64,000 nt of DNA from Candidatus Enterousia sp. (GCA_045586565.1 JAZNAO010000006.1:1457-65456), one strand, 5' to 3'; counted from the first letter of the stretch, positions 1-30,869 are shown. Numbers and translations: made by a program. The notes: generated from the letters alone by a model not told the origin.

Positions 1-483
1 AATTCTACGGACAGTCGTGTGACAGATTCGCGCCCAGATATCGAAGACGCGATTATTCGCCGTCGTCGTGTTTGTGAACAATGCGGGGCGAAATTTACAA
101 CTGTGGAACGTATTCAAATGCGCGATTTAATGGTTCGGAAAAACAGTGGAAAACTGGAACCCTTTGATCGTGAAAAATTGCGTCGCAGTATTAAATTGGC
201 GTGTCGTAATCGTGATGTTGGTGATGAACAAATTGAACGATTGGTAACATCTATCAATCGTCGCCTGGAAACCGAGGCCGCAGATGATACAGTCACCAGT
301 TCACTGGTTGGTCAAATGGTGTCTGATTCTTTGTTAAATCTGGACCCGATTGCATTTGTGCGTTTTGTGTCCGTGTATCGCAAATTTTCACGCGTATCTG
401 ACTTTAAAAAGATAATTGATAAAATCCCAGAAGATGACGAAGGGGCGGTGGTATGCAGACTGCCGAAAACATCGCTGTTCTGA
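1..483 (+). CDS. nrdR: Transcriptional repressor NrdR (5' end cut by window edge)
   Basis: Frame 1 is open from base 1 (NSTDSRVTDSRP...). The IRRRRVC-x2-CG-x-FTT-ER zinc-ribbon half and ATP-cone-like remainder fit NrdR. The first Cys pair lies upstream of the window. Confidence 0.85.
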   Translation, partial: NSTDSRVTDSRPDIEDAIIRRRRVCEQCGAKFTTVERIQMRDLMVRKNSGKLEPFDREKLRRSIKLACRNRDVGDEQIERLVTSINRRLETEAADDTVTSSLVGQMVSDSLLNLDPIAFVRFVSVYRKFSRVSDFKKIIDKIPEDDEGAVVCRLPKTSLF

Positions 484-485
484 TA

Positions 486-2210
486 ATGAAAAAAATTTTT
501 ACATTTTTAATGGCTTTGATTTTGCCACTGGGTGCTGTGGCGGCAGATTTACCACAGATTTTATCTGATGTCGACGTCAGTTTATACGAACAGATTTTTG
601 TATTACAGGATAAAGAAAAAATTGATACCGCGATAAAGGTGCAAAATCAAATTGCAGACAAATTGCTGATGCACGAAGTTTTATATCAGCGGTATATTTC
701 AGATACATATCGAACACGTGGCAAAGAAATCGCAGATTGGATGGAAAAATATTATTATATGCCAGGTGCATCGCGTATGGAAAAATTGGCAAAAATAAAA
801 AAAGCAAGCGTACGCAAAGCGCGCGTTCCTGCAATGATTTCAGGGTCTGAATCAATAGAGACCGCGCAATCTGAAACGTGGACCGCAAAAAAATATAGTG
901 GCAATGCTGCAAAGAAAATTGATGAATTTAAACGTGCAATTCGCAGTGGTTCAACCAAAGTTGCGCGTCAAATCCTGGAAGACAAATCGTTTAAAAAGAG
1001 TTTGACGGAATCTGACTATGGACGTTTGGCGGGACGTTTATCATATATTTATTATACAAATGGTGAAATGGAGTTGGCAAAAAAGTGGGGATTTGTGGCG
1101 TCTGATGCAGATTCTGAATACGGATTGTGGGCAATGGGATTGCTGTATTTCAAAGAAGAAAATTATATCGAAGCACAAAAATATTTTAGTCGTATCTTAG
1201 ATTTGCCGCAAATCAACAATGCCAGAAAGACCGAGGCCGCATTTTGGGCCGGACGTGCCGCAGATTTCAAAGGTGATATTAAAAATGCACATCGGTATTG
1301 GCAAATTGCTGCCACATACCCGATGGCGTTTTACGGTGCGTTGTCGGCAACAATGTTGGGCCAGCAACCAAAGTATGAATTCTTTGAAAATGATGTAACC
1401 GATGATGATATTACAGAACTGGCAAATACAGAATATGGTAAAATTGCGTTGGCATTATTACAGGTCGGACGCAAAGACAGGGCCGAAGAATATCTGAAAT
1501 ATTTAATTACGTCAAAGGCATCTGACAGAATATTACACGCGGTAAATTCTGTGGCATCGGCATATGGATTGCCCCGTGTATCTGTGCAATCGGCGTCTGT
1601 TATCAAAGACCGTGGCATTTTGGAAATTGATGACGATATTATTTATTCTGCACAATACCCACTGCCTGATTGGGAACCAATGGGTGGATGGTCAATTGAC
1701 CGTGCGCTGTTATTGGCAATCACAAAACAGGAAAGCAATTTTCGTGTGTCTGCAAAATCAGGGGCAGGGGCCAATGGTGTTATGCAATTGATGCCCAGCA
1801 CCGCCAAACGTGTTGCACGCGCAAATAAATTGGATATATCCCAAATGGATATGTCAAACCCAGAACACAATATGTTCTTGGGTCAGCAATATATTGTCGA
1901 TCTGTTGTCGCATCCAAATGTTGAAAACAGCATAATTAAAATGTTGGCGGCATATAATGCAGGTATGGGAACAATGGTAAAGTTTGAAAAATCTTTTTAT
2001 ACATATGACCCATTATTATATATCGAAAGTTTTCCGGCATATGAAACACGCAGTTATATAAAGCGCGTAATGTCAAACCTGTGGCTGTATCGTGCACGAT
2101 TGAATCAGCCGCTATCTTCGATGAAAGAATTAGCAAATGGAAACTGGCCATTATATAACAGCGAAGATGAGTATGTGCAACAGCAAATCGCACAACGTAT
2201 GATGATATAA
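486..2210 (+). CDS. slt: Soluble lytic murein transglycosylase (Slt family)
   Basis: ATG at 486 gives a signal peptide (MKKIFTFLMALILPLGAVAA). C-terminal SLT-domain motifs are present: ITKQESNF, GVMQLMPSTA, AAYNAG. Confidence 0.8.
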   Translation: MKKIFTFLMALILPLGAVAADLPQILSDVDVSLYEQIFVLQDKEKIDTAIKVQNQIADKLLMHEVLYQRYISDTYRTRGKEIADWMEKYYYMPGASRMEKLAKIKKASVRKARVPAMISGSESIETAQSETWTAKKYSGNAAKKIDEFKRAIRSGSTKVARQILEDKSFKKSLTESDYGRLAGRLSYIYYTNGEMELAKKWGFVASDADSEYGLWAMGLLYFKEENYIEAQKYFSRILDLPQINNARKTEAAFWAGRAADFKGDIKNAHRYWQIAATYPMAFYGALSATMLGQQPKYEFFENDVTDDDITELANTEYGKIALALLQVGRKDRAEEYLKYLITSKASDRILHAVNSVASAYGLPRVSVQSASVIKDRGILEIDDDIIYSAQYPLPDWEPMGGWSIDRALLLAITKQESNFRVSAKSGAGANGVMQLMPSTAKRVARANKLDISQMDMSNPEHNMFLGQQYIVDLLSHPNVENSIIKMLAAYNAGMGTMVKFEKSFYTYDPLLYIESFPAYETRSYIKRVMSNLWLYRARLNQPLSSMKELANGNWPLYNSEDEYVQQQIAQRMMI

Positions 2211-2224
2211 AATCATATAATTAT

Positions 2225-3106
2225 TTATTGTTCTTCGCCGAAATCCATATCGCGTAATTTTTCGGCCCTGGGCGCAATCTTCGCAACAGATGTCTGCAAC
2301 AGTTCGATATCATTTTGTGCCTGGGCAAAGTGTCGTGAAACGTTCCCCGCACGGTCAGACAGACGCGACAAATCCGTCAACAACATATCCAATTCATGTT
2401 TAATTTTTGCCGCCACGCGTTTGATTTTTATATCAGATAACACTGCGCGAATTGTATTCAGTGTTGCCCACAGTGTCGATGGCGACACAATAAACACCTT
2501 TTTGCGTGCTGCATATTCAATTGTATTTGGAAATTCACGATGCAACATTTCAAATATCGATTCTGATGCAATAAACATCATTGCGGATTCGGCAGTACGT
2601 CCGGCGATAATGTACTTTTCGCCGATTGCATCAATATGCTTGCGCACGTCCAATTCGAATTGTTTGCGTGCCATGCCGTCATTAGTATCCATCATCATCC
2701 GGTTATAACTTTCCAATGGAAATTTACTGTCGATAATCATATCGCCCGGCGGATAGGGCAGGCGGATAATACAGTCCGGTCGTACACCTGATTCCATCAC
2801 GCTTTGAAATGCATATGTTTCTGGTGGCATAATGTCGCGCACCAAATCTTCCAGTTGGCGTTCGCCAAATGTGCCGCGCGCCTGTTTATTGCCCATTAAA
2901 ATGTTTTTAAAGTTCGCAATATCAGAACTGATATTTTTCAATTCAATTGCGTTCTGGCTTAACGCGCCCAGGCGTTCTGCCAACCGTTCGCGCAGTCGCG
3001 CATTGTCTTCGCGCAGGGCCGATATATCAATCGTTGGCCGGCGCATTAAAATCGCAACCAATAAAACAATAATTATTCCCAATAACACAAAAATATAAGT
3101 TGTCAT
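2225..3106 (-). CDS. rmuC: DNA recombination protein RmuC
   Basis: N-terminal TM helix, then a coiled coil, then a RmuC-type core (PDCIIRLP...IIDSKFPLESY). Confidence 0.75.
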   Translation of the reverse strand: MTTYIFVLLGIIIVLLVAILMRRPTIDISALREDNARLRERLAERLGALSQNAIELKNISSDIANFKNILMGNKQARGTFGERQLEDLVRDIMPPETYAFQSVMESGVRPDCIIRLPYPPGDMIIDSKFPLESYNRMMMDTNDGMARKQFELDVRKHIDAIGEKYIIAGRTAESAMMFIASESIFEMLHREFPNTIEYAARKKVFIVSPSTLWATLNTIRAVLSDIKIKRVAAKIKHELDMLLTDLSRLSDRAGNVSRHFAQAQNDIELLQTSVAKIAPRAEKLRDMDFGEEQ

Positions 3107-3148
3107 TTCCTAATCCTTTGCTATGATTTATTATAAAGGTAAATAAAT

Positions 3149-3652
3149 ATGTTGCAAATGAAACTTTGTGGTGACTTGATTTTACGCACACAATGTGCGC
3201 CGGTGGTCAATATCACCCCTGACTTATTAAAAACCATGGACGAAATGGTTGAAATTATGCGCGAACAAAATGGTGTTGGCCTGGCCGCGCCCCAGATTGG
3301 CGCATTATCTCGTTTTCTGGTGATGATGGACCCTGATACAGAAACCGTATACAAAATGATAAATCCGAAAATTTTGTCTTATGGGGATAAAAACTGCACA
3401 ATGGAAGAAGGCTGTCTGTCTGTATTGGGTAATGACGGTTTGCCGGTATTTTCAAATGTATCCCGCCCAGAATCCGTGGTTGTATCGTGGACAGATGAAA
3501 ATGGTGAAAACAAAACCGCACAAATGTCGGGTCTGCCGGGGCGGATTGTTCAACATGAAACAGATCATCTGGACGGGAAATTATTTATCGATTACCTGTC
3601 GCCGATTAAACGCGAAATGTTGATGAGAAAGGTTAAAAAGTTTAAAAAATGA
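3149..3652 (+). CDS. def: Peptide deformylase
   Basis: All three PDF motifs are present: GLAAPQIG, EGCLS, QHETDHLDG. The stop overlaps the fmt start (ATGA). Confidence 0.92.
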   Translation: MLQMKLCGDLILRTQCAPVVNITPDLLKTMDEMVEIMREQNGVGLAAPQIGALSRFLVMMDPDTETVYKMINPKILSYGDKNCTMEEGCLSVLGNDGLPVFSNVSRPESVVVSWTDENGENKTAQMSGLPGRIVQHETDHLDGKLFIDYLSPIKREMLMRKVKKFKK

Positions 3653-4455
3653 AATTGGTTTTAATGGGCACGAATTCTTTTGTTGTGCCAATCTTTGATG
3701 CGATAAAAAATGCAGGCCATGAAATTGTGGCTGTGTTTACGCGCGCGCCAAAGCCCATGGGGCGCAAGCAAATCTTGACACCGTCGCCTGTGCATGTTTG
3801 GGCAAATGAAAACGGATTGACTGTTCACACAAATATTAATGAATATAATTATGCGCCTGATATGGTCGTTGTGATTTCGTACGGTGTGATTTTGCGTGAT
3901 AATGTCCTAAATTCTGCCCCATGCATAAATATTCACCCCAGCATGTTACCAAAATACCGTGGCCCATCACCAATTCGCACAGCCTTGTATAATGGCGATA
4001 CAACGTCGGCGGTATGTTTAATGCAGGTAACACCCGAACTGGACGCAGGTGATATTTACATGTGTCGTGAATTCGACATTGATATTGACGACACAAACGA
4101 AACGGTGGAAAACAAAGTTTCCGAAATTGGTGCCAAAATGATGGTTGATTATTTGGCTAAATCGGACTATTATCCTGCCACGCCACAGTGTGGCGATGTG
4201 ACATTTACCCGAAAATGGACGGGCGATGATGAAATCATAGACTGGTCGCGTGGCGATATGGCGATACACAATCAGATACGCGCACTGGGGTCTGGTCGCA
4301 CCAAGATTAACGGGATAGATGTAAAGATATTAAGAACAAGAATTTGCAACGGCAAACTGGAAATACTGTCAATTCAGCCGGCAGGTAAAAAGCCAATGGA
4401 TTGGAAAAGCTTTGTTAATGGTTTGCGCGGCGCAGATATAGTATTAGGGAAGTAA
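3649..4455 (+). CDS. fmt: Methionyl-tRNA formyltransferase (short form, 268 aa)
   Basis: Formyltransferase motif HPSMLPKYRGPSPI and def-fmt synteny with a 4-nt overlap. Confidence 0.85.
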   Translation: MKLVLMGTNSFVVPIFDAIKNAGHEIVAVFTRAPKPMGRKQILTPSPVHVWANENGLTVHTNINEYNYAPDMVVVISYGVILRDNVLNSAPCINIHPSMLPKYRGPSPIRTALYNGDTTSAVCLMQVTPELDAGDIYMCREFDIDIDDTNETVENKVSEIGAKMMVDYLAKSDYYPATPQCGDVTFTRKWTGDDEIIDWSRGDMAIHNQIRALGSGRTKINGIDVKILRTRICNGKLEILSIQPAGKKPMDWKSFVNGLRGADIVLGK

Positions 4456-4461
4456 AGGAAA

Positions 4462-4644
4462 ATGAGTACAAATAATACACAAGATGATTGTTGCCAGGTA
4501 TGTGAAAAATGTGCAAAATCCAATCAAACATTTTTCTGTTTAGATAGACATTGGTTTTGGCGTGCACTGATGGGGGAAGAACGCGTTCCACAGAATGGAT
4601 GGTGCAATCACTTTAAAAGGTTGGCAAATCAGCACAGCAGATAA
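4462..4644 (+). CDS. Hypothetical small Cys-rich protein (60 aa)
   Basis: ORF with a plausible RBS (AAAGGAAAATG) directly after fmt. It has six Cys (CC-x2-C-x2-C...C...C). I recognise no family. Confidence 0.25.
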   Translation: MSTNNTQDDCCQVCEKCAKSNQTFFCLDRHWFWRALMGEERVPQNGWCNHFKRLANQHSR

Positions 4645-4871
4645 AGGTATAATATGGCAGAACGGTTTTGTAAATATAAACAAAAAGACGTCACATACAA
4701 CGAATATAACAAGAATTGTCTTTGTGTTCCCACAGATACTGTGTTGGCGCGCTCAGATGCGCGCATGCATATTGTATCGCTTTCGACGCATCTTTTGCAA
4801 AAGATAAGGCCAAACAATGTCGTGCATGCCTGCGTAAAACCCGCGAAGAAACACAAAAACAAAGATAATAT

Positions 4872-5603
4872 ATGACACGATATAAAGTAATCTTGGAATA
4901 TGATGGCACAGGCCTGATTGGGTGGCAAGAAAACCGCCATGGGCCGTCTGTGCAATCAATTATGAAAGATGCCATTGAATGTTTTTGTGGTGCGCGCGTT
5001 GATGTTGTGGCGGCGGGACGCACAGATGCCGGTGTGCATGCGGTTGCGATGACGGCGCACTTTGACATTGATGGTGAACATGATGCCGAAACCGTTATGC
5101 GGGCATTAAATTTTTATTTGGTAAATAAACCTGTGGCGGTGTTGGATTGTGAAATTGTGCCTGATGAATTTCATGCGCGATTTGATTGTGTCGCGCGCCA
5201 TTATAAATATGTTGTTTTAAATCGTGGGCCGTCACCGGTACTGCAACAAAATCGTGTTTATTGGGTGCCAAAGAAATTAGATGTTGATGCAATGCGTGCA
5301 GCCGCAGAAAAATTAATCGGCAATCATGATTTTACCAGTTTTCGTGCATCTGAATGCCAGGCGAAATCCCCAATTAAAACATTGGACAGAATAGAAATAA
5401 CCCAAAACGGCGACGAAATTATTTTTGAATTTTCTGCGCGTTCGTTCTTGCATCATATGGTGCGTAATATTGTTGGTACACTGATTGAAATTGGTCATGG
5501 TAAACCATATGATATTGATGAAGTGTTGGCGGCAAAGAATCGTGCGGCGGCGGGCCCAACGGCGCCGGCGTCTGGATTATATTTTATGCGCGCAGAATAT
5601 TAA
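4872..5603 (+). CDS. truA: tRNA pseudouridine(38-40) synthase TruA
   Basis: Catalytic motif AAGRTDAGVHA, with TruA-typical length and layout. Confidence 0.9.
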   Translation: MTRYKVILEYDGTGLIGWQENRHGPSVQSIMKDAIECFCGARVDVVAAGRTDAGVHAVAMTAHFDIDGEHDAETVMRALNFYLVNKPVAVLDCEIVPDEFHARFDCVARHYKYVVLNRGPSPVLQQNRVYWVPKKLDVDAMRAAAEKLIGNHDFTSFRASECQAKSPIKTLDRIEITQNGDEIIFEFSARSFLHHMVRNIVGTLIEIGHGKPYDIDEVLAAKNRAAAGPTAPASGLYFMRAEY

Positions 5604-7546
5604 TGCCATGGCCGATTGGCGGGTGTGTATTTTATACGACCATTTGGGTACATTATAAATCCACCACGCAATATTTTGTGTGCACATTTTTCTGAATCTA
5701 TATTCCAATAAGACACAATATAATCCACACTTTCATCATTGCATAATTTTTGCAGATTATTCATCAGTGGTACGAACTTTTGGATATAAACAATATTGTT
5801 ATATCTGTATACACCGTTGTCGTGTTTGCGACGTGGGTTTGGTGTGTCGATTGCTTCGTTATTTAATTTCTTCCACGTGTTAAACGCAAAGAAATGATTT
5901 GATGCACGTGATTTATTAAATTCCAGTTTCCCATTGTCATCGATAAATCCAACCAGTTCATTATCATGCGTTGTATAAAATATCGGCTTTGGTGTTGTCG
6001 AAACATAAATTGCCCCAGACATGCAAAACACAATACACAAGATAATATTTAATCTGATTTTGTATGGTGTGATTACAATCAAACTAATCAGTCCCAATAT
6101 AAAACACATTATTGCAGCATTTGAAATATGTGGTACGTCAATTACAGACATTGGCAATTGTGCAATCCAATTTGCAATCTGAAATGCCATGTCATAAATT
6201 TGGTGCGCCCAGTTTAATGGGAATAAAATCCCAAACACAGATAACAATGCGCCGATTATAACCAGTGGCATAATTGTCACTGAAAATATAGGCAATAAAA
6301 TTAAATTACCCAGTATGCTGTATGTCGGAATTGTACCAAAATGCATGGCAACAAATGGGGCGGTAAATATCCCGGCCCACACAGATGTTAAAACAGATGC
6401 ATATGTAATCTTTAATATTTTGTTATGTGGCATTTTCGGTTTAACGACGTCATACATCCATACCAATCCAAATACCGCGGCAAAAGATAATTGAAATCCA
6501 GCCTGCATTACATAGTGCGGATTTATCAAAAACATTAATATAAAGACCATTGCAATATTACGCATTGAAATTGCACTGCGTCCGAAAATAAATGCCATAA
6601 ATACCAGTGTTGTCATACAAAACGCGCGAAATGTCGCCGTGTCTGCCCCAGATAAACACATATAAAATAATAATCCCGCCCACGCGCATATTAACGCCGG
6701 GGATTTTGCCGGTATCCGTCGTGTGATGTATGGAATACTGCGGAATATGAAAAAGAACACAACAAATAACCATCCGCCCAGTAATGTCATATGAAATCCA
6801 CTGATTGACCAAATGTGTCCGACACCGGCAGATGTCCAAATTACATCATCCTTTTCTGGAACCATGTTTTTATATCCCAACACCAAACTGTCGACCAAGA
6901 AAGATTCTGATTTGTGGTGAATAAATTCGCGCAGATTTACACTGTTTGCATGATTGATAATTTTCAAATCTGTGACATAACCCGTCGCAGTCAGGTTATT
7001 AAAATATGCATGTCGTGCCCAATCAAATGTTTCTGGCGCAGGCGCCGGTGACATACCGAACAGTCCAACCGTTGCAGATATATTGTCACCGACATTTGGC
7101 ACAATAATATCATCGCCAATTTTAACACGCACGCGTGCCATCCCATTGCCTGCGCGAATATCTGATGCACGTACCGATAAATACAAACGTTTGCCGTCTG
7201 GGGTATAGTCAATTGATTCAACAATCGCATTTATATTATGGTCGTGTAAATCATATTTTAGTTTTGGTGTGTCGACTAAATGTGTATATATGAACGCATA
7301 ACAAAAACCAAAACAGAGCAGGGCAATCCCGCGAATAATATTTGGAATTTTATTCCAGAATATAATTGTAATTAACCCCAGTGTAATTATCGGCAATCCA
7401 ATGATGTATGGTTCGGCCGGCATAGTAAAATATAACGCGGCGCCAAACGCCATTAAAAATGGCACGAACCAAAACAAGTTTTCAGATTGATATTTCCACC
7501 AATTTTTCATATCCAAATTATAGGAATTTATTCTGTTGCCCTGCAA
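5600..7546 (-). CDS. comEC: ComEC/Rec2-family DNA internalisation channel protein (no metallo-beta-lactamase domain visible)
   Basis: Polytopic membrane protein with a soluble insertion between N-terminal TMs (DUF4131-like), followed by a competence-domain-like TM bundle. I saw no HxHxDH motif anywhere in the protein. Confidence 0.75.
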   Translation of the reverse strand: MQGNRINSYNLDMKNWWKYQSENLFWFVPFLMAFGAALYFTMPAEPYIIGLPIITLGLITIIFWNKIPNIIRGIALLCFGFCYAFIYTHLVDTPKLKYDLHDHNINAIVESIDYTPDGKRLYLSVRASDIRAGNGMARVRVKIGDDIIVPNVGDNISATVGLFGMSPAPAPETFDWARHAYFNNLTATGYVTDLKIINHANSVNLREFIHHKSESFLVDSLVLGYKNMVPEKDDVIWTSAGVGHIWSISGFHMTLLGGWLFVVFFFIFRSIPYITRRIPAKSPALICAWAGLLFYMCLSGADTATFRAFCMTTLVFMAFIFGRSAISMRNIAMVFILMFLINPHYVMQAGFQLSFAAVFGLVWMYDVVKPKMPHNKILKITYASVLTSVWAGIFTAPFVAMHFGTIPTYSILGNLILLPIFSVTIMPLVIIGALLSVFGILFPLNWAHQIYDMAFQIANWIAQLPMSVIDVPHISNAAIMCFILGLISLIVITPYKIRLNIILCIVFCMSGAIYVSTTPKPIFYTTHDNELVGFIDDNGKLEFNKSRASNHFFAFNTWKKLNNEAIDTPNPRRKHDNGVYRYNNIVYIQKFVPLMNNLQKLCNDESVDYIVSYWNIDSEKCAHKILRGGFIMYPNGRIKYTPANRPWH

Positions 7547-7588
7547 TGATATTTTTTGTATGATAGAATTCCATAAGGAGGCTCTCTT

Positions 7589-9160
7589 ATGGCAAGATAT
7601 ATATTTATTACTGGTGGGGTTGTATCAAGTTTAGGCAAGGGCGTCGCAGCGGCAGGTTGCGGCGCCCTTCTTCAATCGCGTGGATATACGGTGCATGCGC
7701 GAAAATTTGACCCGTATTTGAATATTGATCCTGGGACAATGTCACCATTTCAGCACGGTGAAGTTTACGTGACAAATGACGGTTATGAAACAGATTTAGA
7801 TTTAGGATATTATGAACGTTTCTTGGGTGCAAAATTATCCAGAAACGATTCTGTATCTGGGGGGCGAATATATTGGGATGTATTAAATGCCGAACGTCGT
7901 GGGGACTATCTGGGTGGTACAGTGCAAATGATTCCGCACGTTTCAAATAAAATAAAAGAATACATTGCTGCACCAACTGATACAGATTTTGTGGTGTGCG
8001 AAATTGGTGGCACCGTAGGCGATATCGAAGGTAAGATTTTCTTAGAATCAATACGTCAATTCGCAAATGATGTTGGTCGCAAAAATGTTATGTTTGTTCA
8101 TTTAACATTGGCGCCATATTTGGAAAAATCAGGTGAATTAAAAACCAAGCCAACCCAGATGTCTGTTCGACAATTACTGGAAAACGGAATCCAGGCAGAT
8201 ATGCTGATTGTGCGAACGCCACGAATGTTGACGGCCGATGAGCGCGATAAAATCGGAATGTTTTGTAATCTGCCATCCAAAAGTGTCATCAGTGGAATTG
8301 ACGTTGATAATATCTATAAAATACCATTGGCATACGAATCCCAACACGTCTTTGACATTATTGCCAATCATTTTGATTTACCACATGCGCGGGGTGACAT
8401 GACGCGATTTGAACGTATTGAACGATATCTGGATGCAGATTTGCCGACGGTCAACATTGGTATTGTGGGCAAATACTTTAATGTCCCAGACGCGTATAAA
8501 TCATTAAACGAGGCCTTGTTTCATTCTGGTATACAAAATAATGTGCACATAAATTTATGTAAACTGGATGCGGAAAAATTCACCCCAGACGATTGTCGCA
8601 ACATGCATGGAATATTAGTTCCCGGGGGATTTGGTGTTCGTGGCACAGATGGTAAAATTGCCGCTGCAAAATACGCACGTGAAAACAAAATTCCATATAT
8701 GGGGATATGTCTGGGGATGCAGGTTGCAGTTATTGAATTTGCGCGCAATGTATTGGGTATTGATAATGCAAATTCGTCAGAATTTAGTTCTGATTGCACC
8801 CCGGTGATTGGGATTATGTCAGAACACAATGCAGAAAATATGGGTGGCACATTGCGATTGGGCGCATACCCATGCAATATAACACCAAACACATTGGCGC
8901 ACCAGATATATAATACAACACAAATATCCGAACGGCATCGCCACAGATACGAAATGGACATATCTTTAGAGAAACGCTTTGCCGATGCTGGTATGATAAT
9001 ATCTGGGCGCAGTCCCGATGGAACATTGCCGGAAATGATTGAGCTTTGCAATCATCCCTTCTTTATTGCGGGTCAATTTCACCCAGAATTTCAATCGTCG
9101 CCATACACGGGCCATCCGATGTTTAATGCATTTGTATCTGCGGCAAAAAAACAAATATAA
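7589..9160 (+). CDS. pyrG: CTP synthase
   Basis: N-terminus ARYIFITGGVVSSLGKG, glutaminase Cys motif GICLGMQ, and C-terminal HPEF. Confidence 0.95.
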   Translation: MARYIFITGGVVSSLGKGVAAAGCGALLQSRGYTVHARKFDPYLNIDPGTMSPFQHGEVYVTNDGYETDLDLGYYERFLGAKLSRNDSVSGGRIYWDVLNAERRGDYLGGTVQMIPHVSNKIKEYIAAPTDTDFVVCEIGGTVGDIEGKIFLESIRQFANDVGRKNVMFVHLTLAPYLEKSGELKTKPTQMSVRQLLENGIQADMLIVRTPRMLTADERDKIGMFCNLPSKSVISGIDVDNIYKIPLAYESQHVFDIIANHFDLPHARGDMTRFERIERYLDADLPTVNIGIVGKYFNVPDAYKSLNEALFHSGIQNNVHINLCKLDAEKFTPDDCRNMHGILVPGGFGVRGTDGKIAAAKYARENKIPYMGICLGMQVAVIEFARNVLGIDNANSSEFSSDCTPVIGIMSEHNAENMGGTLRLGAYPCNITPNTLAHQIYNTTQISERHRHRYEMDISLEKRFADAGMIISGRSPDGTLPEMIELCNHPFFIAGQFHPEFQSSPYTGHPMFNAFVSAAKKQI

Positions 9161-9183
9161 AATCCCCCGTCTGGGGGATTTTC
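9158..9183. terminator. Bidirectional terminator between pyrG and skp-like gene
   Basis: ATCCCCC-GTCT-GGGGGAT hairpin flanked by an A-run and a T-run. Confidence 0.75.
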
Positions 9184-9849
9184 TTAGAAACCTTGTGGTT
9201 TGTCCATTTTGACCTTGGATACTTTTTTATCCAATGCCTGGATTACTTCGTTTGTAATGTCCAGATTTTCTGTGTTTGCACCTGTGCGCGCCATACGACC
9301 GTCGATTACCAATGACAGTTGTTTTTTATCAATGATACCTTCGATAACCGGGTCCAGATGTTTTACCTGAATATCATTCAATGCCTTTTGGAAAGACATT
9401 TCAACACTCTGTGCACGTTCGGTCAATTCGCGTTGCAGATTTGTCACTTTGTTTTGATAGTCAACAACGCGACGTTGTAATGCTTCACGTGACAGAACGT
9501 CTTGTGATTTTTCGATTTCTTCCTTTTCTTCTTCCAGTTCTTTCTGCTTTTTTGTCAATTCATCACGCAGTTTACTTTCATATGATTCTTTCTGTGCGCG
9601 TAAATCAGCCAACGCCACAGCATCATTTTGAATTGCGTCCATACGTATAACCGCGATACGCAGGTTTGCCGCGCTTGCGGCATCTGTGGTTACGACTTCC
9701 ATTGCATCGGCAACAGATGCGCCCGTATCAGAATTTAATGCCGATACCCCCCATACACCCAATGCCGCGACTGCGATAACAACCGCCGCCACAATGCCAG
9801 TTTTTTTATAGTTTTTTACAACCTGATTTTCATTTGATTTTTTTACCAT
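9184..9849 (-). CDS. OmpH/Skp-like periplasmic chaperone (membrane-anchored)
   Basis: N-terminal hydrophobic anchor, a long charged coiled coil, and a C-terminal ...LDITNEVIQALDKK resembling the OmpH family. Confidence 0.55.
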   Translation of the reverse strand: MVKKSNENQVVKNYKKTGIVAAVVIAVAALGVWGVSALNSDTGASVADAMEVVTTDAASAANLRIAVIRMDAIQNDAVALADLRAQKESYESKLRDELTKKQKELEEEKEEIEKSQDVLSREALQRRVVDYQNKVTNLQRELTERAQSVEMSFQKALNDIQVKHLDPVIEGIIDKKQLSLVIDGRMARTGANTENLDITNEVIQALDKKVSKVKMDKPQGF

Positions 9850-9916
9850 TTTTCCGTCCTTTATGTTTTGTTATACGTATACTATAACAACAAAAAAATA
9901 AAATGAAAAGGGAAAG

Positions 9917-10600
9917 TTATCTGGCGGGACTAAGCCTGATTTCAACCCGTCGATTGGTCAAACGACCGATGTCATCTTGTGCGGCGATGGGGCGTGCCGC
10001 GCCACGACCAACGATAAACATACGTGCCGTACTGATATCGTGTTGTGCCATATATACGCCAACGCGTTTCGCCATATCAATCGATAGCGCATATGCCGCA
10101 TTTGTGTCACGCATTGCATCTGTATATCCTGCGATTTCAATAAAAGTTGCGTCATATTGTTTTAATATTTTTGTAATAATTTTCAATGTATCATCACCTG
10201 TTGATGAAATATCGGCAATATCTAATTCCATAATCGCATCCCGTACCAGTATAACAACCACATCCGTTCCGGCACGTTGCACAGAAATCCCCGGCTTGCG
10301 CAGGGCGTCATACAATGCGTATTCCAGGCTTTTCATATATTGTGTTGCAATGATATTGTCGTTTGTTGTTTTGTCACCATATGATAATGTGTCGTCTGCA
10401 TCAACTGCGTCACCCACCAATTTGCCGCCTGCGCCCAGATATACAGGTCGCTTTGCGACGCGTGACATTTCGGTCATATCCGTCCAACTGGCGCCATTTA
10501 AATATTGTGACCATGTTTGTCTGTCTGGGCTGGTATACGGCATACACCCATTTAGTATGCTAAATAAAGATAATATAAAAATAAATTTTAATTTATTCAT
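9917..10600 (-). CDS. OmpA/Pal-like peptidoglycan-binding lipoprotein
   Basis: Lipobox LSLFSILNGC. C-terminal OmpA-like domain: IEIAGYTD...ALSIDMAKRV...RRVEIRL. The start abuts the stop of the pilin gene. Confidence 0.7.
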   Translation of the reverse strand: MNKLKFIFILSLFSILNGCMPYTSPDRQTWSQYLNGASWTDMTEMSRVAKRPVYLGAGGKLVGDAVDADDTLSYGDKTTNDNIIATQYMKSLEYALYDALRKPGISVQRAGTDVVVILVRDAIMELDIADISSTGDDTLKIITKILKQYDATFIEIAGYTDAMRDTNAAYALSIDMAKRVGVYMAQHDISTARMFIVGRGAARPIAAQDDIGRLTNRRVEIRLSPAR

Positions 10601-11059
10601 TTATTCAACAATAAACGATATTTGGTTTGTATCAGATTCAAAACAGTTTTCTGCATATCCTGTTTCAAAGCCGTTTACCAGCATTTTTGTTGCCCACTGT
10701 GGTTTCATGGTTGAAAAATAATCACATTCACCTGTTGTTAAATCAACCAAGTTGATGGAAAATGTCGCGCCATCTGTACTGGATGTTATGGACCATCCTT
10801 CGCCACCAATTGGGGCGCGATCTGATTGTAATGCGCCCGCCTTGATAAGATAGTCCACAGACACACCTGTATAATCATCGCGCATTTCCAATAACAATTT
10901 TGTGTTTGCTGCGATTTGTTCCAATTCTGCATTTGCGATTGTTCGCTTTTGATTTTCGCGCATTATGCGAAACATTCCAAATGCCGCCACTGTCATCAGA
11001 CCAGTAATCGCCATAACACCGATAACTTCAATCAAAGACCGTCCAGATTGTTGTTTCAT
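10601..11059 (-). CDS. Type IV pilin / pseudopilin-like protein (152 aa)
   Basis: Class-III signal peptide pattern MKQQSG|RSLIEVIGVMAITGL with Glu at +5. C-terminal Cys pair (GEC...ENC). The start overlaps the dnaX stop (TAATG). Confidence 0.65.
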   Translation of the reverse strand: MKQQSGRSLIEVIGVMAITGLMTVAAFGMFRIMRENQKRTIANAELEQIAANTKLLLEMRDDYTGVSVDYLIKAGALQSDRAPIGGEGWSITSSTDGATFSINLVDLTTGECDYFSTMKPQWATKMLVNGFETGYAENCFESDTNQISFIVE

Positions 11060-12627
11060 TATTTTACTCCTACGATTTCTGCGTTTTCAAACAGGCTCAT
11101 TGCGCTGGCGACCAATGGGTCTGCAACCAATTCTTCTTGTTTTTGTTCAGACATTGTATGTGTATGAACATTTTCACTGGCGCGAACCATCTCCCATGCA
11201 TGTCCTGTCTTGTCCATCAGCCATGTGGCCAATTTATGCACAAAATCCCCGTCACCTTTGCGGTCAAAGTATGTGATTTTACCATCGGTAAATTCAGACA
11301 CTTCGATATTACTGCTATAATAAGAATATAATAAAATTTCCTTGGATTTTTGTAATTCTTCCCCCAGTTGTGTTGCAGACGTAATTGTTACAAATGTTGT
11401 TTGTGGTATACACGGTTGTGTTTCTGACGGTTTAGACATACGGTCTGCCAAAATATTTTTTACGTCACGCACACGATTTGCAGATTCTTGCTGTTTAATC
11501 AATTCTGGGATTGATGGCATATCTGCAATATGCATCATACGAATAATCAGCATATCAAAACATTGTTTTTGATTGCCCGCAGCCTGCATTTCTGGGACGG
11601 CGGCAACCATAACCTGCCATATACGCGACAATGTGTTCACAGATACGCGTGAATTTATCATATGAATCTGGTCGCGTTGGTCGGTGGTGTATGGTGAATT
11701 TACAGCATCGCCTGCGTGTAATGCCGGATGCATACGCGTTGCCCAGTGTGTCCATTCCATCATGTCCGTCAACAACATCATTAAATCGGCGCCGTTATTA
11801 TAAATCTCGTCTACCTTGTTTAATGCGGCTGCTGTGTCACCAGATAACAAAGTCTTCATCAAATCAACCACAACACCACGGTCGGCACGTTTAAGCATAT
11901 CTAATACAGCTACTTCATCAACGTGTCCCCCGGTTTGGGCAATTGCCTGGTCCAGCAAAGATAAACCATCGCGCACAGAACCATCTGCCGCGCGTGCCAA
12001 TAATTCGTTTGCGCCATCAGTCAGTTCAACATTTTCCTGGTCTGCAATCCATGCAAAATGTTTTTTTAATGTTTCGACCGGCACACGCACCAAATCAAAA
12101 CGTTGGCAACGAGATAAAATCGTCACGGGAACTTTTCGGATTTCTGTGGTTGCCAAAATGAATATTACATGTGCGGGTGGTTCTTCTAATGTTTTCAACA
12201 GTGCGTTAAACGCAGATGTCGACAGCATATGAACTTCGTCAATAATATAAACTTTATATCGTCCGTTTGTTGGTCTGTATTGTGCCGCATCCAGAATGTC
12301 ACGCATATTATCCACACCTGTATGTGATGCAGCGTCGATTTCCATAACGTCAATATGTTGTCCGGCGGCAATTGCGCGACAGTTTTCGCATGTTCCACAT
12401 GGTGTTGCGGTTGCCCGGTCTGATGATTGGCAATTCAATGCCTTGGCCAAGATACGCGCTGTGCTTGTTTTTCCAGTTCCGCGAATTCCTGTGAAAATAT
12501 ATGCGTGCGCAATACGTGACGTGTTGATTGCAGTGGTCAATGTTTTTACCAAAACATCCTGGCCAATCAGTGTTTTAAAATCTTGACTGCGATATTTACG
12601 TGCCAAAACGGTATAATTGTTTTCCAT
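11059..12627 (-). CDS. dnaX: DNA polymerase III subunit gamma/tau
   Basis: Walker A GTGKTSTARI, zinc module C-x8-CGTCENC, Walker B YIIDEVHMLS, and SRCQRF. Confidence 0.92.
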   Translation of the reverse strand: MENNYTVLARKYRSQDFKTLIGQDVLVKTLTTAINTSRIAHAYIFTGIRGTGKTSTARILAKALNCQSSDRATATPCGTCENCRAIAAGQHIDVMEIDAASHTGVDNMRDILDAAQYRPTNGRYKVYIIDEVHMLSTSAFNALLKTLEEPPAHVIFILATTEIRKVPVTILSRCQRFDLVRVPVETLKKHFAWIADQENVELTDGANELLARAADGSVRDGLSLLDQAIAQTGGHVDEVAVLDMLKRADRGVVVDLMKTLLSGDTAAALNKVDEIYNNGADLMMLLTDMMEWTHWATRMHPALHAGDAVNSPYTTDQRDQIHMINSRVSVNTLSRIWQVMVAAVPEMQAAGNQKQCFDMLIIRMMHIADMPSIPELIKQQESANRVRDVKNILADRMSKPSETQPCIPQTTFVTITSATQLGEELQKSKEILLYSYYSSNIEVSEFTDGKITYFDRKGDGDFVHKLATWLMDKTGHAWEMVRASENVHTHTMSEQKQEELVADPLVASAMSLFENAEIVGVK

Positions 12628-12675: not shown

Positions 12676-12702
12676 ACAAATAAAACGCGCCAATGGCGCG
12701 CT
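12676..12702 (-). terminator. Intrinsic terminator after the DUF4167 gene
   Basis: CGCGCC-AAT-GGCGCG hairpin. A T-rich run follows on the minus strand. Confidence 0.6.
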
Positions 12703-12709
12703 TATAATA

Positions 12710-15751: not shown

Positions 15752-15752
15752 A

Positions 15753-17069
15753 ATGACAAAACGATACGGAATTTTTTCAAAATACAATCAATCGCGTGGC
15801 GGCATGTTGATTGAATTACTGCTTAGTGTGGCATTGGCATCTGTGATAATACCATTCATTTTCCAGTATCAACAGAACGCGGTAACGCGTGCGCAAAATA
15901 TTGCGATTACAGAACAAATGTCGGATATTCAATCTGCATTGGAAAGATATATAATTGCCAATCGCGAAGATTTATTAAAAACTGTGGGTCGCACTATTAC
16001 GCGCATATCTATGTCTGATTTGGTGCCATATGGTGTCCCAGATTCTGTATTGACCGCCGGCGATGAATTGTTTCAACTGCGCATCTTAAAATCGTCAGAT
16101 TATGGTGACCAGTCTACATTACAGGGAATCGTTGTGCGAAACTCAGAAGATATATCCCCATTGCGAACACGTGAAATTGTGAATCTGTCTGGGGGCAGTA
16201 TGGGTTTTATTGATGACACTCATGCGTATGGTACATTTGGTACATGGCATACAGATACAGTTGACATGGGCATTGATATGGATAACGCGATTATTGAAAC
16301 GACACCTGTGAATCGTGACAACGCGTTGTATTTGTGGCGCATACCATCTGATGATGCGTCAGACTCGCGCATGATGACGGCGTTAAACCTGGGTGGGCAT
16401 GATATATTAAATTCATCGTTTGTAAATGCGAATCATATTGAATTTTCAGAAATGTTGTCTGCACCTGCGATTGCGACGGGCGATATTATCTTTCAAAACA
16501 GAACAACGATAGATTGGCCATTGGATGCATCCAACGCCAGTGTCGCGGGTATGTTATCTTCGGATGCCAAGAATATGGAAATAACCAATTCTTTGACGAT
16601 TGGTGACGTTGCAAAATTATCATCGTTGACGGCATCAAATTTATGGGTTGGCAATTTAACGTTGGGTGGTTTATCTTTGCACGGTGATGTAGAAGTCGCG
16701 ACCTTGGCCATAAATCAGACACTGGATATGACTGCCGGTCGTATCGAAGCAATGTTTGTATCTGTTGGTTTTGCAGGTTCTATGACGCCGCGTCTGGTTG
16801 TTTACGACAGAATCGAAGATTCAACGAATTCTGGATACTATTGGGATTTGAAATCAGAAATGGCAAGCTTTGCGGACGCAACGTTGGTTGAATTAAATCG
16901 TATGGCAACCTTGGCGTCATATTACGAAGGTGATGCGTCGACTGAATCTGGCCAGATTTTTGGTGCGGTATCTGCGAATAAAAATGCGACTGTATCTGAT
17001 TACATGAACGCGATAAATGAAATTCAAACGCGTGTTCGTGCCAAATATCGTCAGTTGAATTTGCAATAA
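15753..17069 (+). CDS. Large pilin-like protein 3 (438 aa)
   Basis: N-terminus ...SRG|GMLIELLLSVALASVIIPFIFQYQ with Glu at +5. Contains YLWR...LNLGGHDILN. Starts 1 nt after the upstream stop. Confidence 0.55.
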   Translation: MTKRYGIFSKYNQSRGGMLIELLLSVALASVIIPFIFQYQQNAVTRAQNIAITEQMSDIQSALERYIIANREDLLKTVGRTITRISMSDLVPYGVPDSVLTAGDELFQLRILKSSDYGDQSTLQGIVVRNSEDISPLRTREIVNLSGGSMGFIDDTHAYGTFGTWHTDTVDMGIDMDNAIIETTPVNRDNALYLWRIPSDDASDSRMMTALNLGGHDILNSSFVNANHIEFSEMLSAPAIATGDIIFQNRTTIDWPLDASNASVAGMLSSDAKNMEITNSLTIGDVAKLSSLTASNLWVGNLTLGGLSLHGDVEVATLAINQTLDMTAGRIEAMFVSVGFAGSMTPRLVVYDRIEDSTNSGYYWDLKSEMASFADATLVELNRMATLASYYEGDASTESGQIFGAVSANKNATVSDYMNAINEIQTRVRAKYRQLNLQ

Positions 17070-17089: not shown

Positions 17090-17617
17090 ATGAAAATAAA
17101 ATGTGAATTTTGTAAAACAGAATATAATATAGACAGACCGCCATTGACGCCGGTTAAATGTGCGTTGTGTGGGTATACGTGGCGCGTTGCGGCACCGGCG
17201 CGCAAGAACGTATGGTTGATGTTTTTTGCGTCTGTCTGTGCATTATTGTCTGCGATAATTTTTTCTATTGCGGTTATTGCTCATCACCAGGCTATTCATG
17301 CGAACCGTGGTCCATTGATTGCATCTGTGTCTGGGGTTGAAACCGCGACTGATGATACTGGTGTTTCGCATGTAATTGTCAGTGGTTCTGTGACAAATGT
17401 ATCGGATGCGATATATGGTGTGCCTGACTTGATAATTGTTGCGACGGACGATAATGGGAATGTTTTATCGCGCCAGAAATTTATGCCATCGGCCACATTA
17501 CTTGATTCTGGGGCGGTTGTGAATTTTAAACACACACTGGCGCCATTGCCGTCTGGCGTGACTAAGATATCCGCACATTTGGGCGAAATGGAAATACCAT
17601 CGGGGGAAGAACAATGA
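17090..17617 (+). CDS. MJ0042-type zinc-ribbon protein with TM helix and DUF3426-like C-terminal domain
   Basis: CEFC-x15-CALC zinc ribbon at the N-terminus, one TM helix, and a beta-rich C-terminal domain, as in the zinc-ribbon/DUF3426 family. Confidence 0.55.
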   Translation: MKIKCEFCKTEYNIDRPPLTPVKCALCGYTWRVAAPARKNVWLMFFASVCALLSAIIFSIAVIAHHQAIHANRGPLIASVSGVETATDDTGVSHVIVSGSVTNVSDAIYGVPDLIIVATDDNGNVLSRQKFMPSATLLDSGAVVNFKHTLAPLPSGVTKISAHLGEMEIPSGEEQ

Positions 17618-18072
17618 AAAAATTTATATTTGCATTGATTGGTTTGGCTTTATCTGCACCGTCATTTGCGGCAGACACGCCTGCGCCCGCGCGCATCAGT
17701 ATTTTTTCCACCAGCACTGATTGGCAGGCAGTTACTGGTCTGCGTCTGAACGAATATAATGGCACGTTTATTCCAGACAAGAAATTGGTTGGTCGTGGTC
17801 TGGTTTTGTATTACCTGGATGGGTTTCCGTGTTATGGGTTGGGGTATGGTGTTCGCGCGTGGGTTGGCCCAGACTTTAATCATGAACATTTGCATATTGC
17901 GTGTGTTGCGGCACCCACAGAAATTAAGTTTGCATACCGCAACGCCACCCGTGATGCAGACCAGGCGACAACCACAGGAATTTTGACATGTCCGGTTGAA
18001 GGCGACGGTCGTGAATTGACAATCCGTTTGTCTGATTGTACGGTTGGCCCTGATTGGGATGAATACAGATAA
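17614..18072 (+). CDS. Secreted hypothetical protein (152 aa)
   Basis: Signal peptide MKKFIFALIGLALSAPSFA|AD, four Cys, and a 4-nt overlap with the upstream gene. Confidence 0.45.
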   Translation: MKKFIFALIGLALSAPSFAADTPAPARISIFSTSTDWQAVTGLRLNEYNGTFIPDKKLVGRGLVLYYLDGFPCYGLGYGVRAWVGPDFNHEHLHIACVAAPTEIKFAYRNATRDADQATTTGILTCPVEGDGRELTIRLSDCTVGPDWDEYR

Positions 18073-19117: not shown

Positions 19118-22100
19118 ATGTCATTTCTCAAAAATACAGTAAGTTTATTGGCGGTTTTCTGCGTTGTTCCGGCGGCTTTTGGTGCCACGGCGCGCCCCAG
19201 TGTTTTAAACACTGCGACGGCGGTTTCGGCAACTGGTGCGGTTCGTCGTGTGGCGATGCCAACGATGACATCGTATATCACTGGCTCGGCGGGTGGTGTT
19301 ACAAACAACAATAATGGCAACTCTGGTTCCAGCAACTTATTAGACAGCATTGAATGCATCGATGCATACACCGAATGTATCAAATCCGAAGATGTGTGCG
19401 GCGAAGATTTGTCAGAATGCACAACAAACGTATTGTTCCATGGCAAAATGCCCCAGTGTGTAAGCACCCTGGCCCAATGTGAACCGGATGGGGTTGATGC
19501 ATTATTTGGCACAAAGAATGTAACCGATTTGTCGTTCTATGATTCAAATAATTCTGCGGAATATGATGCCGAAGATGGTGAGGTTATTCGTTACACATAC
19601 CCAACAGACGGCAGTGTTCTGGGGCAAATGATTATATCTGCGGCGATTGAAAATCAGTATGATACACAAACATGCGTGAAACGTTATATGTCATGCTTGA
19701 ATAAAGACAGTGTTTGTGGTGCAGACTTTGAATTATGTACCGACGAACGTGAATTTAAAAAGCAGGCATTGTTCTGTGATTCAACCCTGGCCCGTTGCCA
19801 GGCAGACGGTGTTCGCGAATTATTCGGGGTTTCAAAATGGTCGCCACATAAAATGGGTGCGGATGGCAAAATCGAAGGTTCTTCCCGTGTTGGTGTGGCA
19901 ATCAAAGACGGTGCAGATTTGGCGGCGTTGAACGCGGTTTCTACCTGTTACAAGGTTGTTGAACAGTGTTTCTTGGGCGCATGTTCGGCCAATCCGTTGC
20001 GTTGTTTGGCGGGGTCGAATTTATCGACATTGACGGCGGCAAATGATATTGCGGCGGACGGTATCACAATCACATTGTCAAATGACAGTGCGCCATCAAC
20101 CCCAACAGACGTAAATCGTTATCTGCGCACATCGTGCCAGGATACAATTGGTGCAAATAAATTCTGTCACATGACATTCTTGGGCAAAAATCCAAGTAAG
20201 AAAGACTTGGCGGATGTAGATGTCCAATCAGAAGTCTTTGACGATGCAATCAGCGAACGTAAAAAATACGTTGAATCAAAAATCCAAGATTTGATGACAC
20301 AGTTCGATAAACGTGCCAAGGATAAATGTGTTGAAACAATTCGTTCATGCGCAATGCGTTCCTGTGGCGAAGGTGTCGGTTCTGTATGTTATTCATCTGT
20401 ATATGGCGCGAATGGCGGAAATACAATTGCGGGTCCGGCCACACGTCCAGATATCAAAACGGCATGTGAATCTGTTGTAAATACCGATGTGAATTGCCAA
20501 TATGCATATTCAACTGTTATAGATAATGGTGTGTATTCATACAATTACATCCAAAATTCTGTATTTGATACATTATTCCCAGAATATGCTGCCGACAAAA
20601 CAAACAATGATCCAATCGGTGTAATCGGGTCGTTAAATTCGTCCCTGTCGACCAGTTATAATGCCGCTGCTCTGGCGCAAATGAAGAAGCAATGTCAATC
20701 TGTCGCGACCAGCTGTGTTAAATCAATGTGTGGCACGGATTACCAGAATTGCTATCGCAATCGAACAGATATCTTGTCTGATTTGACCAATACGGATAAT
20801 GCAAAGTTTGATACGTCAATGAACAAGGTTGGTGGTGTTCTGGATTATACAATTGTATTGGGATTGTGCATGAACACGGTTAAAAACGCCGATGTATGTG
20901 ATGAACACCTGAAAATCCAAAAGGCCAAATTAGATTTGGAAAAGACAACGGAAAATGTATGGGGAACACAATCGTCTGTCCGTGATGGCTGGATTGATGC
21001 TGGTGGTGCCAAGAAGTTTGAAGAAGGGATGGTTCATTCCAAAGACGAAAATGGTGCCGATTTATGCACAAATGCTGCAGGGGACCAAGGTGTTTGCTAT
21101 GACGTTGATGCCAATGGTGATGTTTTTAATAAACCTGTGATGATATCTGCAGACCTGTATAAAACGAACCAGGCCACAACATCATTATTCCGTGAATTGT
21201 TGGTTGATTTAGAATACGAAGCCCAGGCGAAGTATAACGCCAAATTGACGAAACAACAGAATATGTGTCTGGCGGCAAATTCTGGTGGTGTTGTTGGCGC
21301 TGGCGATATGGGTTCAACATTCATGTGGGCAAAATTGAAAAGGGGCAAGGTTCCGGCCGATTATTCAATGAATGGTTTAACCAGTGACCAAATTGTCCCA
21401 AGTAATGAATTGTATGGTTCATTCTGCCGTGTGCGTGTGACACTGCAATCCACAGACCCAACCGTATCTGAATGGTTAAACAGTACCGAAGGTCAGAAAT
21501 ATGCAACGCGTTATTTTGCGGCGGGTGATGCATTTACATGCGGTTCATGGATACCTGTTGGCGATGAAGGAACATGCCATGACGATACCGCCGCGGGCAT
21601 CAGAAGATGCAAAGGTGGCTCAGGATTACGTGGCCTGGCGCAAAAGGTTGGCGAAGCCACATATACATACGACAAACAGAAATCCGACACAATTCTGCAA
21701 ACAATGTTGCCAGTGGTTGGATTGCTGGGTGGTGGTATTGGTGGTGCATATCTGGGCGCCGGCATCGAAGACGGTTCTGTATTCGGCGGTCTGACGGGTA
21801 AAAAGAGCACAAAATCAGACAGCAAGACAGCAAAGACTGCAAACGATAGATGTTCGAATGCCATCGATATGGCCAAAACAAAATTAGCGGAAGCAAATCC
21901 TAGCCTGGAAAGTGTAAGAAGTTTAGCCAAAACAGCGGCTGATGAATTAGAAGACATGGACAAGGTTGTGTACAAAAACCTGGAGTATTGGCCAGATGGT
22001 ATGACAACTACTGTTACTGAAACTATTTCTAAAGGAGAAGGGGAGCAAACTAAATATTATTGTGGCGGGACAGAAGTCAATACGAAAGTACCAGCACGGT

Positions 22101-25591: not shown

Positions 25592-25617
25592 AAAAACGGC
25601 ATGACGCCGTTTTTTTA
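25590..25617. terminator. Bidirectional terminator between uvrD and the VirB6-like operon
   Basis: A-run, then ACGGC-ATGAC-GCCGT hairpin, then T-run. Confidence 0.65.
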
Positions 25618-30801: not shown

Positions 30802-30869
30802 TCTCTCTTTTTATTTTTATCTTTTCAATTATATCACATTTAATGCAAAATATGGTATACTTAAAAACA

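Follow-up and report, generated by a model that had tools for sequence, protein, structure and literature searches.

The dnaX gene is usually followed by ybaB (ebfC) and recR. In a 64-kb stretch of DNA from Candidatus Enterousia (order Rs-D84, gut Alphaproteobacteria), referred to below as the window and amounting to about 7% of one genome, it is followed instead by a small open reading frame (ORF) with the features of a type IV pilin and by a gene for an OmpA-family lipoprotein. What kind of structure would be built from such a pilin, and why does its gene lie behind a replication gene? The original prediction for this DNA took the three genes for one unit and proposed that, together with comEC and a comF-type gene, they may represent the remnant or the core of a DNA-uptake pseudopilus. 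The analysis described here points to another answer, for which the chances seem slightly better than even: a dispersed type IVb adhesive pilus, the subunit genes of which would have been taken up into two operons, those of dnaX and rluD, in a compacted genome. Such genomes, of about 0.75-1 Mb in Rs-D84, lack amino-acid, nucleotide and lipid synthesis, and their owners, widespread in livestock and human guts, are predicted to live as symbionts or parasites of other cells, with no contact or uptake apparatus described so far (PMC12306168).

The small ORF is, as judged from its sequence and its predicted fold, a true type IV pilin of the type IVb class. Its N-terminus, MKQQSG/RSLIEVIGVMAITGLMTVAAF (the slash marks the predicted cleavage site), is organized as a class III signal, with Gly at -1, Glu at +5 and a hydrophobic helix. 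The six-residue leader, the Glu at +5 and a C-terminal Cys pair had led to the initial assignment of the ORF as a type IV pilin, and they are indeed present, the cysteines being at positions 112 and 139. In an alignment of 45 homologues, G6, R7, E11, C112 and C139 are invariant, and G6 and E11 are also kept across the superfamily described below; the invariant Cys pair is a candidate for a disulfide bond. The homologues, 458 in number, are nearly equal in length. The ratio of non-synonymous to synonymous substitution rates, obtained from the few usable unsaturated pairs, is about 0.2 for the pilin versus 0.04-0.1 for its neighbours. The genes of the unit are strongly conserved and are not decaying.

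Structure prediction agrees with this assignment. The AlphaFold2 (AF2) model of the pilin, with a predicted local distance difference test (pLDDT) score of 79.8, consists of a helix spanning residues 8-60 and of four strands, as in the pilin fold. When this model was submitted to Foldseek, the top 16 matches were all type IVb pilins (TcpA, CofA and PilS of S. Typhi), whereas scores remained below 5 for type IVa pilins and pseudopilins. The family profile aligns in register with the G/FTLIE pilins of the PDB. With tblastn, weak matches (E 0.03 or worse) to bundlin-family pilins were obtained against plasmids, and spurious Bacillus phage matches only were obtained against phages.

The pilin belongs to a wider superfamily. 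A profile search of 1.84 billion representatives retrieved 550 cluster representatives sharing the signature SG/RS[LM]IE[ML][LI]GVLAI; all of the named members come from Alphaproteobacteria or from metagenome-assembled genomes (MAGs) of Rickettsiales. The superfamily diverges to a mean column identity of 24%, with G-1, R+1 and E+5 invariant, and its distant members (family profile E about 2e-8 or better) pass the Pfam PilS/Bundlin models with 36.9-44.5 bits. In a metagenome scan, an ORF of about 555 residues carrying a T2SSE-type Walker A motif (GPTGSGKST) was observed a few kb upstream of a G/RSMVE pilin in 13 out of 78 loci. The one locus annotated among these 13 (L119, positions 345..12324, on a 402-kb human-gut contig) contains a complete R64-type operon, in the order secretin, PilO2, T2SSE, T2SSF, four tandem PilS/bundlin pilins, three of which are of the G/RSMVE type, and a second T2SSE. 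This order matches that of the R64-type operon in another locus, L097. Pilins with Arg at +1 are therefore genuine clients of type IVb machines, since those of L119 lie inside a type IVb operon.

Elsewhere, in alphaproteobacterial MAGs, G/RSMIE pilin genes occur one or two at a time amid genes of housekeeping function (pcnB/rph, rpoZ/relA and uvrC/rluD in L008, L009 and L094), with no machinery nearby. A pilin homologue (L090, 8001..8456; 32% identity, profile E 6e-33) was also found inside a prophage-like element, flanked by a T7-type terminase and a portal gene, beside the host mraY-ftsW-murG genes. A search of IMG/VR gave one weak pilin match (L096).

A second group of prepilin-like genes, overlooked in the original prediction, lies at 13174-17069 and is divergent from the dnaX unit. 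A six-frame scan of the 64 kb for a Gly followed by four residues, Glu or Gln, and 16 uncharged hydrophobic residues matched the pilin, two of the three large ORFs of this group, and one transmembrane segment considered as a false match. The N-termini of the large ORFs, each continued by a hydrophobic helix, are conserved in 73-76 orthologues (76 for protein 1). Profile comparisons with hhalign show that the three proteins are paralogous, with 98% probability (E 1e-13) between proteins 2 and 3, and 52-94% between protein 1 and the other two. The N-terminus of protein 2 matches GspI (TIGR01707, E 0.0075), and its hhalign match with PilV is weak (32%, E 5e-4). Protein 3 aligns with PilV from a Xanthomonas plasmid over 227-233 columns, in register from the cleavage site (91-93% probability, E 3e-7 to 1e-6). 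Four of 26 protein 3 orthologues also match Pfam Shufflon_N, the constant region of PilV, with a best E value of 4e-6 and 27.0 versus 27.5 bits; this is the only family match among them, and the window protein itself has no Pfam match. In tblastn against plasmids, pilV genes were the only matches, and these were weak. By its sequence, protein 3 is probably a distant relative of PilV, which forms the adhesive tip of the thin pilus of R64. In the R64 and TP114 systems, the choice of target cells is made by PilV, which acts as an adhesin (PMC9045228). Assembly of the toxin-coregulated pilus (TCP) is initiated by a large minor pilin (PMC5207764). No recombinase, of the Rci type or other, was found among the Pfam matches of the window ORFs, and no repeat search was made for shufflon cassettes.

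The three large genes are co-operonic with genes for a Zn-ribbon membrane protein and a secreted 152-residue protein, an arrangement that recurs, with its gene order, in nearly all of the related loci. When the Zn-ribbon protein, the 152-residue protein, the lipoprotein and the DUF4167 protein encoded upstream of dnaX were compared by hhalign with all R64-type Pil proteins, nothing exceeded 20% probability.

How are the pilin and lipoprotein genes connected to dnaX? The dnaX gene itself is orthodox, with DNA_pol3_delta2, gamma3 and DUF3646 domains and a score of 605.9 bits against the NF006585 cut-off of 604. At its end, the sequence TAATG has one base common to the dnaX stop codon (TAA, 11061-11059) and the pilin start codon (ATG, 11059-11057), and the ATG of the lipoprotein gene stands immediately 3' of the pilin TAA, with a gap of 0; both junctions are, to the base, as initially described. 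In 87 related loci, on which all counts of junctions, hairpins and gene triads are based, TAATG was found 58 times. Elsewhere the gap does not exceed 23 nt, except in two copies of one distant MAG locus (L006/L007), where it is 86 nt in the junction count and 77 nt between the called genes. Between pilin and lipoprotein genes, 57 loci have no intervening base (gap 0), and 19 others show a slight overlap (-1 or -4). In most of the loci, a GGGGG/GGAG run precedes the pilin ATG at equal spacing.

Terminator-like hairpins were looked for around and within the unit. Of the 87 loci, 51 have one in the 200 nt that precede dnaX, 2 have one where dnaX meets the pilin gene, and none has one where the pilin and lipoprotein genes meet; in the window, neither junction has one. 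The hairpin at 12683..12703 is likely to be the upstream boundary of the dnaX unit. On the other side, a strong hairpin (9182..9159) is located 3' of the OmpH/Skp-like gene, which is probably the last gene of the unit in the Enterousia window genome. The view of dnaX, pilin and lipoprotein genes as one compact unit is thereby borne out, as it is by their conservation in at least 80 species. The accompanying remark that ybaB does not follow dnaX also holds: ybaB is missing from the window and is found elsewhere in relatives. The proposal to locate the two usual followers of dnaX succeeded in part: in 16 related loci, ybaB was found at a distance of 1-7 kb, on one strand or the other; recR was not located.

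A promoter-like match at 11090..11061 was considered as a possible pilin promoter and discarded, as only 2 nt separate the end of its -10 element from the ATG and as shuffled sequences are expected to give just as many matches as the region does. Recent horizontal transfer of the block was likewise rejected, because its GC content is uniform (0.39-0.46). In one relative (GCA_045635825.1, L005/L055, 8431..10001), the gene calls split dnaX into two parts, of 162 and 356 residues, which reflects either an assembly error or a frameshift.

The relatives were gathered by a scan of species-representative genomes, which returned 80 loci, mostly from MAGs labelled 'Candidatus Enterousia sp.', Alphaproteobacteria or Rickettsiales, from animal and human guts, and including a closed genome of 958,618 bp. 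The triad formed by dnaX, the pilin gene and the OmpA-like gene is kept in all of the 87 loci. In Enterousia, one strand carries, in essentially all loci, rluD, the gene for the 152-residue secreted protein, that for the Zn-ribbon protein and the three large ORFs; the opposite strand carries the DUF4167 gene, dnaX and the genes for the pilin and the OmpA-like protein, after which skp usually comes. The outer flanks of this block vary, and skp follows the lipoprotein gene in most relatives, not in all. At 42% pilin identity (L091, L092), the triad alone is kept and the flanks have changed. A Rickettsiales MAG from a termite gut (L006), with 30% pilin identity, still has the triad; lspA-yidC lies upstream of it, and the large ORFs are not adjacent. 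In the 87 loci as well as in L006, L091 and L092, the lipoprotein gene is always downstream of the pilin gene.

The lipoprotein itself had been called OmpA/Pal-like. Its membership in the OmpA family stands, with a lipobox (LNG/C19) and a PF00691 score of 43.6 bits versus a cut-off of 27.2. The kinship with Pal does not, since the Pal equivalog TIGR02802 gives 24 bits versus 125.35 and no tolB is adjacent. The best NCBIfam match is of the YiaD type (91 bits versus a cut-off of 175), and E. coli YiaD (2k1s) can be aligned with the last 138 residues (E 3.9e-15), which makes the C-terminal domain of YiaD the nearest relative. It is the unbroken coupling to the pilin gene, and this only, that suggests a role in the pilus, where the lipoprotein may anchor or gate the filament.

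The adjacency might, of course, have no meaning. The lipoprotein would then be a general YiaD-like protein, encoded together with skp in a cluster of envelope genes, and in an ancestor the pilin gene would have been inserted between dnaX and this cluster. The nearest relatives of the lipoprotein are indeed of the general YiaD/PA0833 type, skp comes after its gene in many loci, and other pilins of the superfamily lie alone among unrelated housekeeping genes. However, pilin and lipoprotein genes abut or overlap in 76 of the 87 loci, and the pair is kept at 30-42% pilin identity when all other neighbours, including skp, have changed. A chance insertion of this kind is accordingly held to be distinctly improbable.

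The machinery required for a filament raises another question. It was looked for by Pfam searches on about 59 window ORFs and by regular expressions applied to all loci (T2SSE Walker A and His box, A24 GxGDxK, secretin motif); over all the Enterousia loci, the latter retrieved two ABC-type (ATP-binding cassette) ATPases only. One may imagine that the machinery has been lost and that the inner-membrane-anchored pilin-like proteins and the OmpA-like lipoprotein tether the envelope layers to each other, without any filament. Such a role would agree with the absence of assembly genes from the window and the related loci, with the strict stop/start coupling of pilin and lipoprotein genes over deep divergence, with an expression tied to a housekeeping gene, and with a published survey that gives no type IV pili for Rs-D84 (PMC12306168). 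Yet G-1 and E+5 remain invariant although identity falls to 24%, and these residues matter only for cleavage by the peptidase and for filament assembly. Moreover, members of the superfamily are found in complete type IVb operons, and the search for machinery covers only about 7% of a genome. Little credence is therefore given to a role without a filament.

If a filament is made, it could still be a device for DNA uptake, as first proposed, with a short periplasmic or surface fibre handing DNA to ComEC and ComF and thereby supplying nucleotides. The comEC gene (5600..7546; Competence domain PF03772, E 9e-53) and the comF-type gene are both in the window, as had been stated, in a lineage that has no nucleotide synthesis. 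A low, dnaX-coupled expression would be easier to reconcile with a pseudopilus than with a long pilus. The idea may also draw on E. coli, where recC has a set of minor pseudopilin genes, ppdAB-ygdB-ppdC, as neighbours. Against it, the fold and the family are those of the adhesive type IVb class and not of ComGC, ComP or type IVa pilins, the large neighbouring prepilins resemble the PilV adhesin, and in relatives no synteny links comEC and comF to the triad. Considering these observations, together with the lack of any decay, neither the remnant nor the core of a DNA-uptake pseudopilus describes the locus well, and this function is regarded as rather unlikely. It would possibly coexist with an adhesive pilus, with which it is compatible, but it is indicated neither by the pilin class nor by synteny. 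As for the window ComEC, only the Competence and DUF4131 domains were matched at E <= 1e-3, with no metallo-beta-lactamase domain match.

For the dispersed adhesive pilus, the following steps may be envisaged. A promoter located 3' of the hairpin at 12703-12683 would drive transcription of dnaX together with the pilin and lipoprotein genes. Translation of the pilin would start from the Shine-Dalgarno sequence embedded in the last dnaX codons, and that of the lipoprotein would proceed by termination-reinitiation at TAA-ATG. A prepilin peptidase would cut the 152-residue prepilin after Gly6, and the product would be polymerised, as the main subunit of a filament of the type IVb class (R64 thin pilus, PilS-TcpA), by an ATPase, a platform protein and a secretin encoded elsewhere in the genome. 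The three paralogues of 413-452 residues would be PilV-like minor pilins, probably acting in priming and as an adhesive tip. Made in step with the pilin, the lipoprotein would most plausibly tie an outer-membrane part of the machine, or the surrounding envelope, to the cell wall. The function of the filament would be contact with partner cells, most likely attachment to them, in a lineage without nucleotide, amino-acid and lipid synthesis of its own. For the link with dnaX, the best explanation is the fusion of operons in a compacted genome, giving constitutive, growth-coupled expression; a functional tie of the pilin to replication is less likely.

Several observations weigh against this model. 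Neither the 64-kb window nor the related loci, which amount to about 1.5 Mb, yielded a T2SSE, T2SSF, Peptidase_A24 or secretin gene, and an OmpA-like gene was not found in the R64-type operons examined (L097, L119). The window pilin scores below the Pfam cut-offs (18.5 versus 21.2 bits for N_methyl, 17.4 versus 22 for PilS). Its invariant Arg at +1 is atypical, the N-methylated +1 residue of type IV pilins being usually Phe or Met. Its leader is atypical too: type IVb pilins reportedly have leaders of about 13-30 residues and mature proteins of about 180-200 residues, whereas the window pilin falls outside both ranges with 6 and 146 residues. Neither is it encoded in a pil operon with its machinery, its gene being located between dnaX and the OmpA-like gene. 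Major pilins are normally very highly expressed from promoters of their own, and the coupling to dnaX suggests a low abundance. In the lipoprotein family, the peptidoglycan-binding Arg of the LSxxRA motif is replaced throughout by Met (LSIDMAKRV); an Arg occurs two residues later, and the Asp of GYTD is kept. The AF2 model of protein 3, built from 26 homologues, is unusable (pLDDT 33.6). Finally, the sole genomic survey of Rs-D84 attributes type IV pili to another lineage and not to Rs-D84 (PMC12306168).

It is tempting to go one step further and to imagine that a divergent type IVb filament, with its Arg+1 pilin, three PilV-like tips and an OmpA-like lipoprotein, is the main organ of partner contact in Rs-D84, possibly scavenging DNA as well. 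In such a case, the supply of pili would track growth, the subunit genes being hard-wired into the dnaX and rluD operons. This extension is put forward as tentative, and doubt about it outweighs confidence.

Location of the features of the dnaX unit and of the divergent operon, in window coordinates (aa, amino acids)
Feature	Position	Strand	Basis
OmpH/Skp-like chaperone gene	9184..9849	-	PF03938, E 4e-16
OmpA-family lipoprotein, 227 aa	9917..10600	-	lipobox LNG/C19, PF00691, YiaD-like C-terminal domain
Type IVb-like prepilin, 152 aa	10601..11059	-	leader MKQQSG, mature RSLIEV..., C112 and C139, 458 homologues
Shine-Dalgarno-like GGAG in final dnaX codons	11067..11070	-	7 nt 5' of pilin ATG
dnaX, DNA polymerase III gamma/tau subunit, 522 aa, first gene of unit	11059..12627	-	Pfam and NCBIfam
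Terminator-like hairpin, interval between DUF4167 gene and dnaX	12683..12703	-	9-bp stem, 6 GC pairs, T-rich tail
Large prepilin-like protein 1, 452 aa	13174..14532	+	RG/NFLMQ..., Gln +5; found by motif scan
Large prepilin-like protein 2, 413 aa	14510..15751	+	HG/ASVLEV..., Glu +5
Large prepilin-like protein 3, 438 aa, PilV-like minor pilin (putative)	15753..17069	+	RG/GMLIEL...
Zn-ribbon membrane protein	17090..17617	+	weak Zn_ribbon_4 / FxLYD matches only, for this and the next gene
Secreted 152-aa protein	17614..18072	+	4-nt overlap with Zn-ribbon gene

Other genes of the window encode secreted proteins or predicted membrane proteins. After rluD, a gene at 19118..22432 encodes a Cys-rich secreted protein of 1104 residues, which is conserved beside the block in many relatives. 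Two more Cys-rich secreted proteins are encoded at 34317..35102 and 55291..56376, one of them with an Ephrin_rec_like repeat. At 25615..32159, five adjacent ORFs of 396-486 residues, four on the minus strand and one on the plus strand, are predicted to encode polytopic membrane proteins and have no Pfam match. They may form a lineage-specific family of transporters or contact proteins.

A pilus had not been reported before in Rs-D84 or Enterousia. The conserved set of pilins of the type IVb and PilV-adhesin types offers a concrete candidate for a contact apparatus in this dependent lineage. It also defines a pilin subfamily with the signature G/RS[LM]IE, the window member of which was missed by Pfam cut-offs. 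In these alphaproteobacterial lineages, scattered pilin genes appear to be the general case, and the dispersal of pilus genes into the housekeeping operons of compacted genomes bears on the automated detection of secretion systems and pili. Should closed genomes prove to lack all assembly genes, these proteins would provide the first example of type IV pilins that have been kept for a purpose other than building a filament.

Comparison with known systems places the Enterousia genes close to, and apart from, several of them. The dnaX gene is as orthodox as in the canonical dnaX-ybaB-recR arrangement, from which the locus differs in having no ybaB after it. The lipoprotein shares with YiaD of E. 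coli and PA0833 of P. aeruginosa a lipobox and an OmpA-like C-terminal domain. It differs from them by the lack of a glycine-zipper N-domain, by Met in place of the LSxxRA Arg and by a strict coupling to a pilin gene. TcpA and CofA are the best structural matches of the pilin model, in spite of an identity of 13-18% only. These pilins have about 190-200 residues and long leaders, and they are encoded in dedicated operons with a single minor pilin; the association of a small major pilin with large minor ones of roughly 400-500 residues, TcpB and CofB, is nevertheless found on both sides. With the thin pilus of R64 and TP114, there are differences as well as likenesses. The genes of Enterousia belong to the chromosomal core and not to a plasmid, and the pilin genes lie apart from any machinery, inside the dnaX and rluD operons. 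There are three PilV-like paralogues instead of one, with no shufflon seen (repeats were not searched). The pilin is shorter (146 residues when mature), with its 6-residue leader and invariant Arg at +1, and it has an OmpA-like lipoprotein as partner, for which R64-type operons have no counterpart. The likenesses are the following: the pilin superfamily passes Pfam PilS/Bundlin, the product of 15753..17069 aligns with the constant region of PilV from the cleavage site, and relatives with G/RSMVE pilins display the order PilN-PilO2-PilQ-PilR-PilS-PilT.

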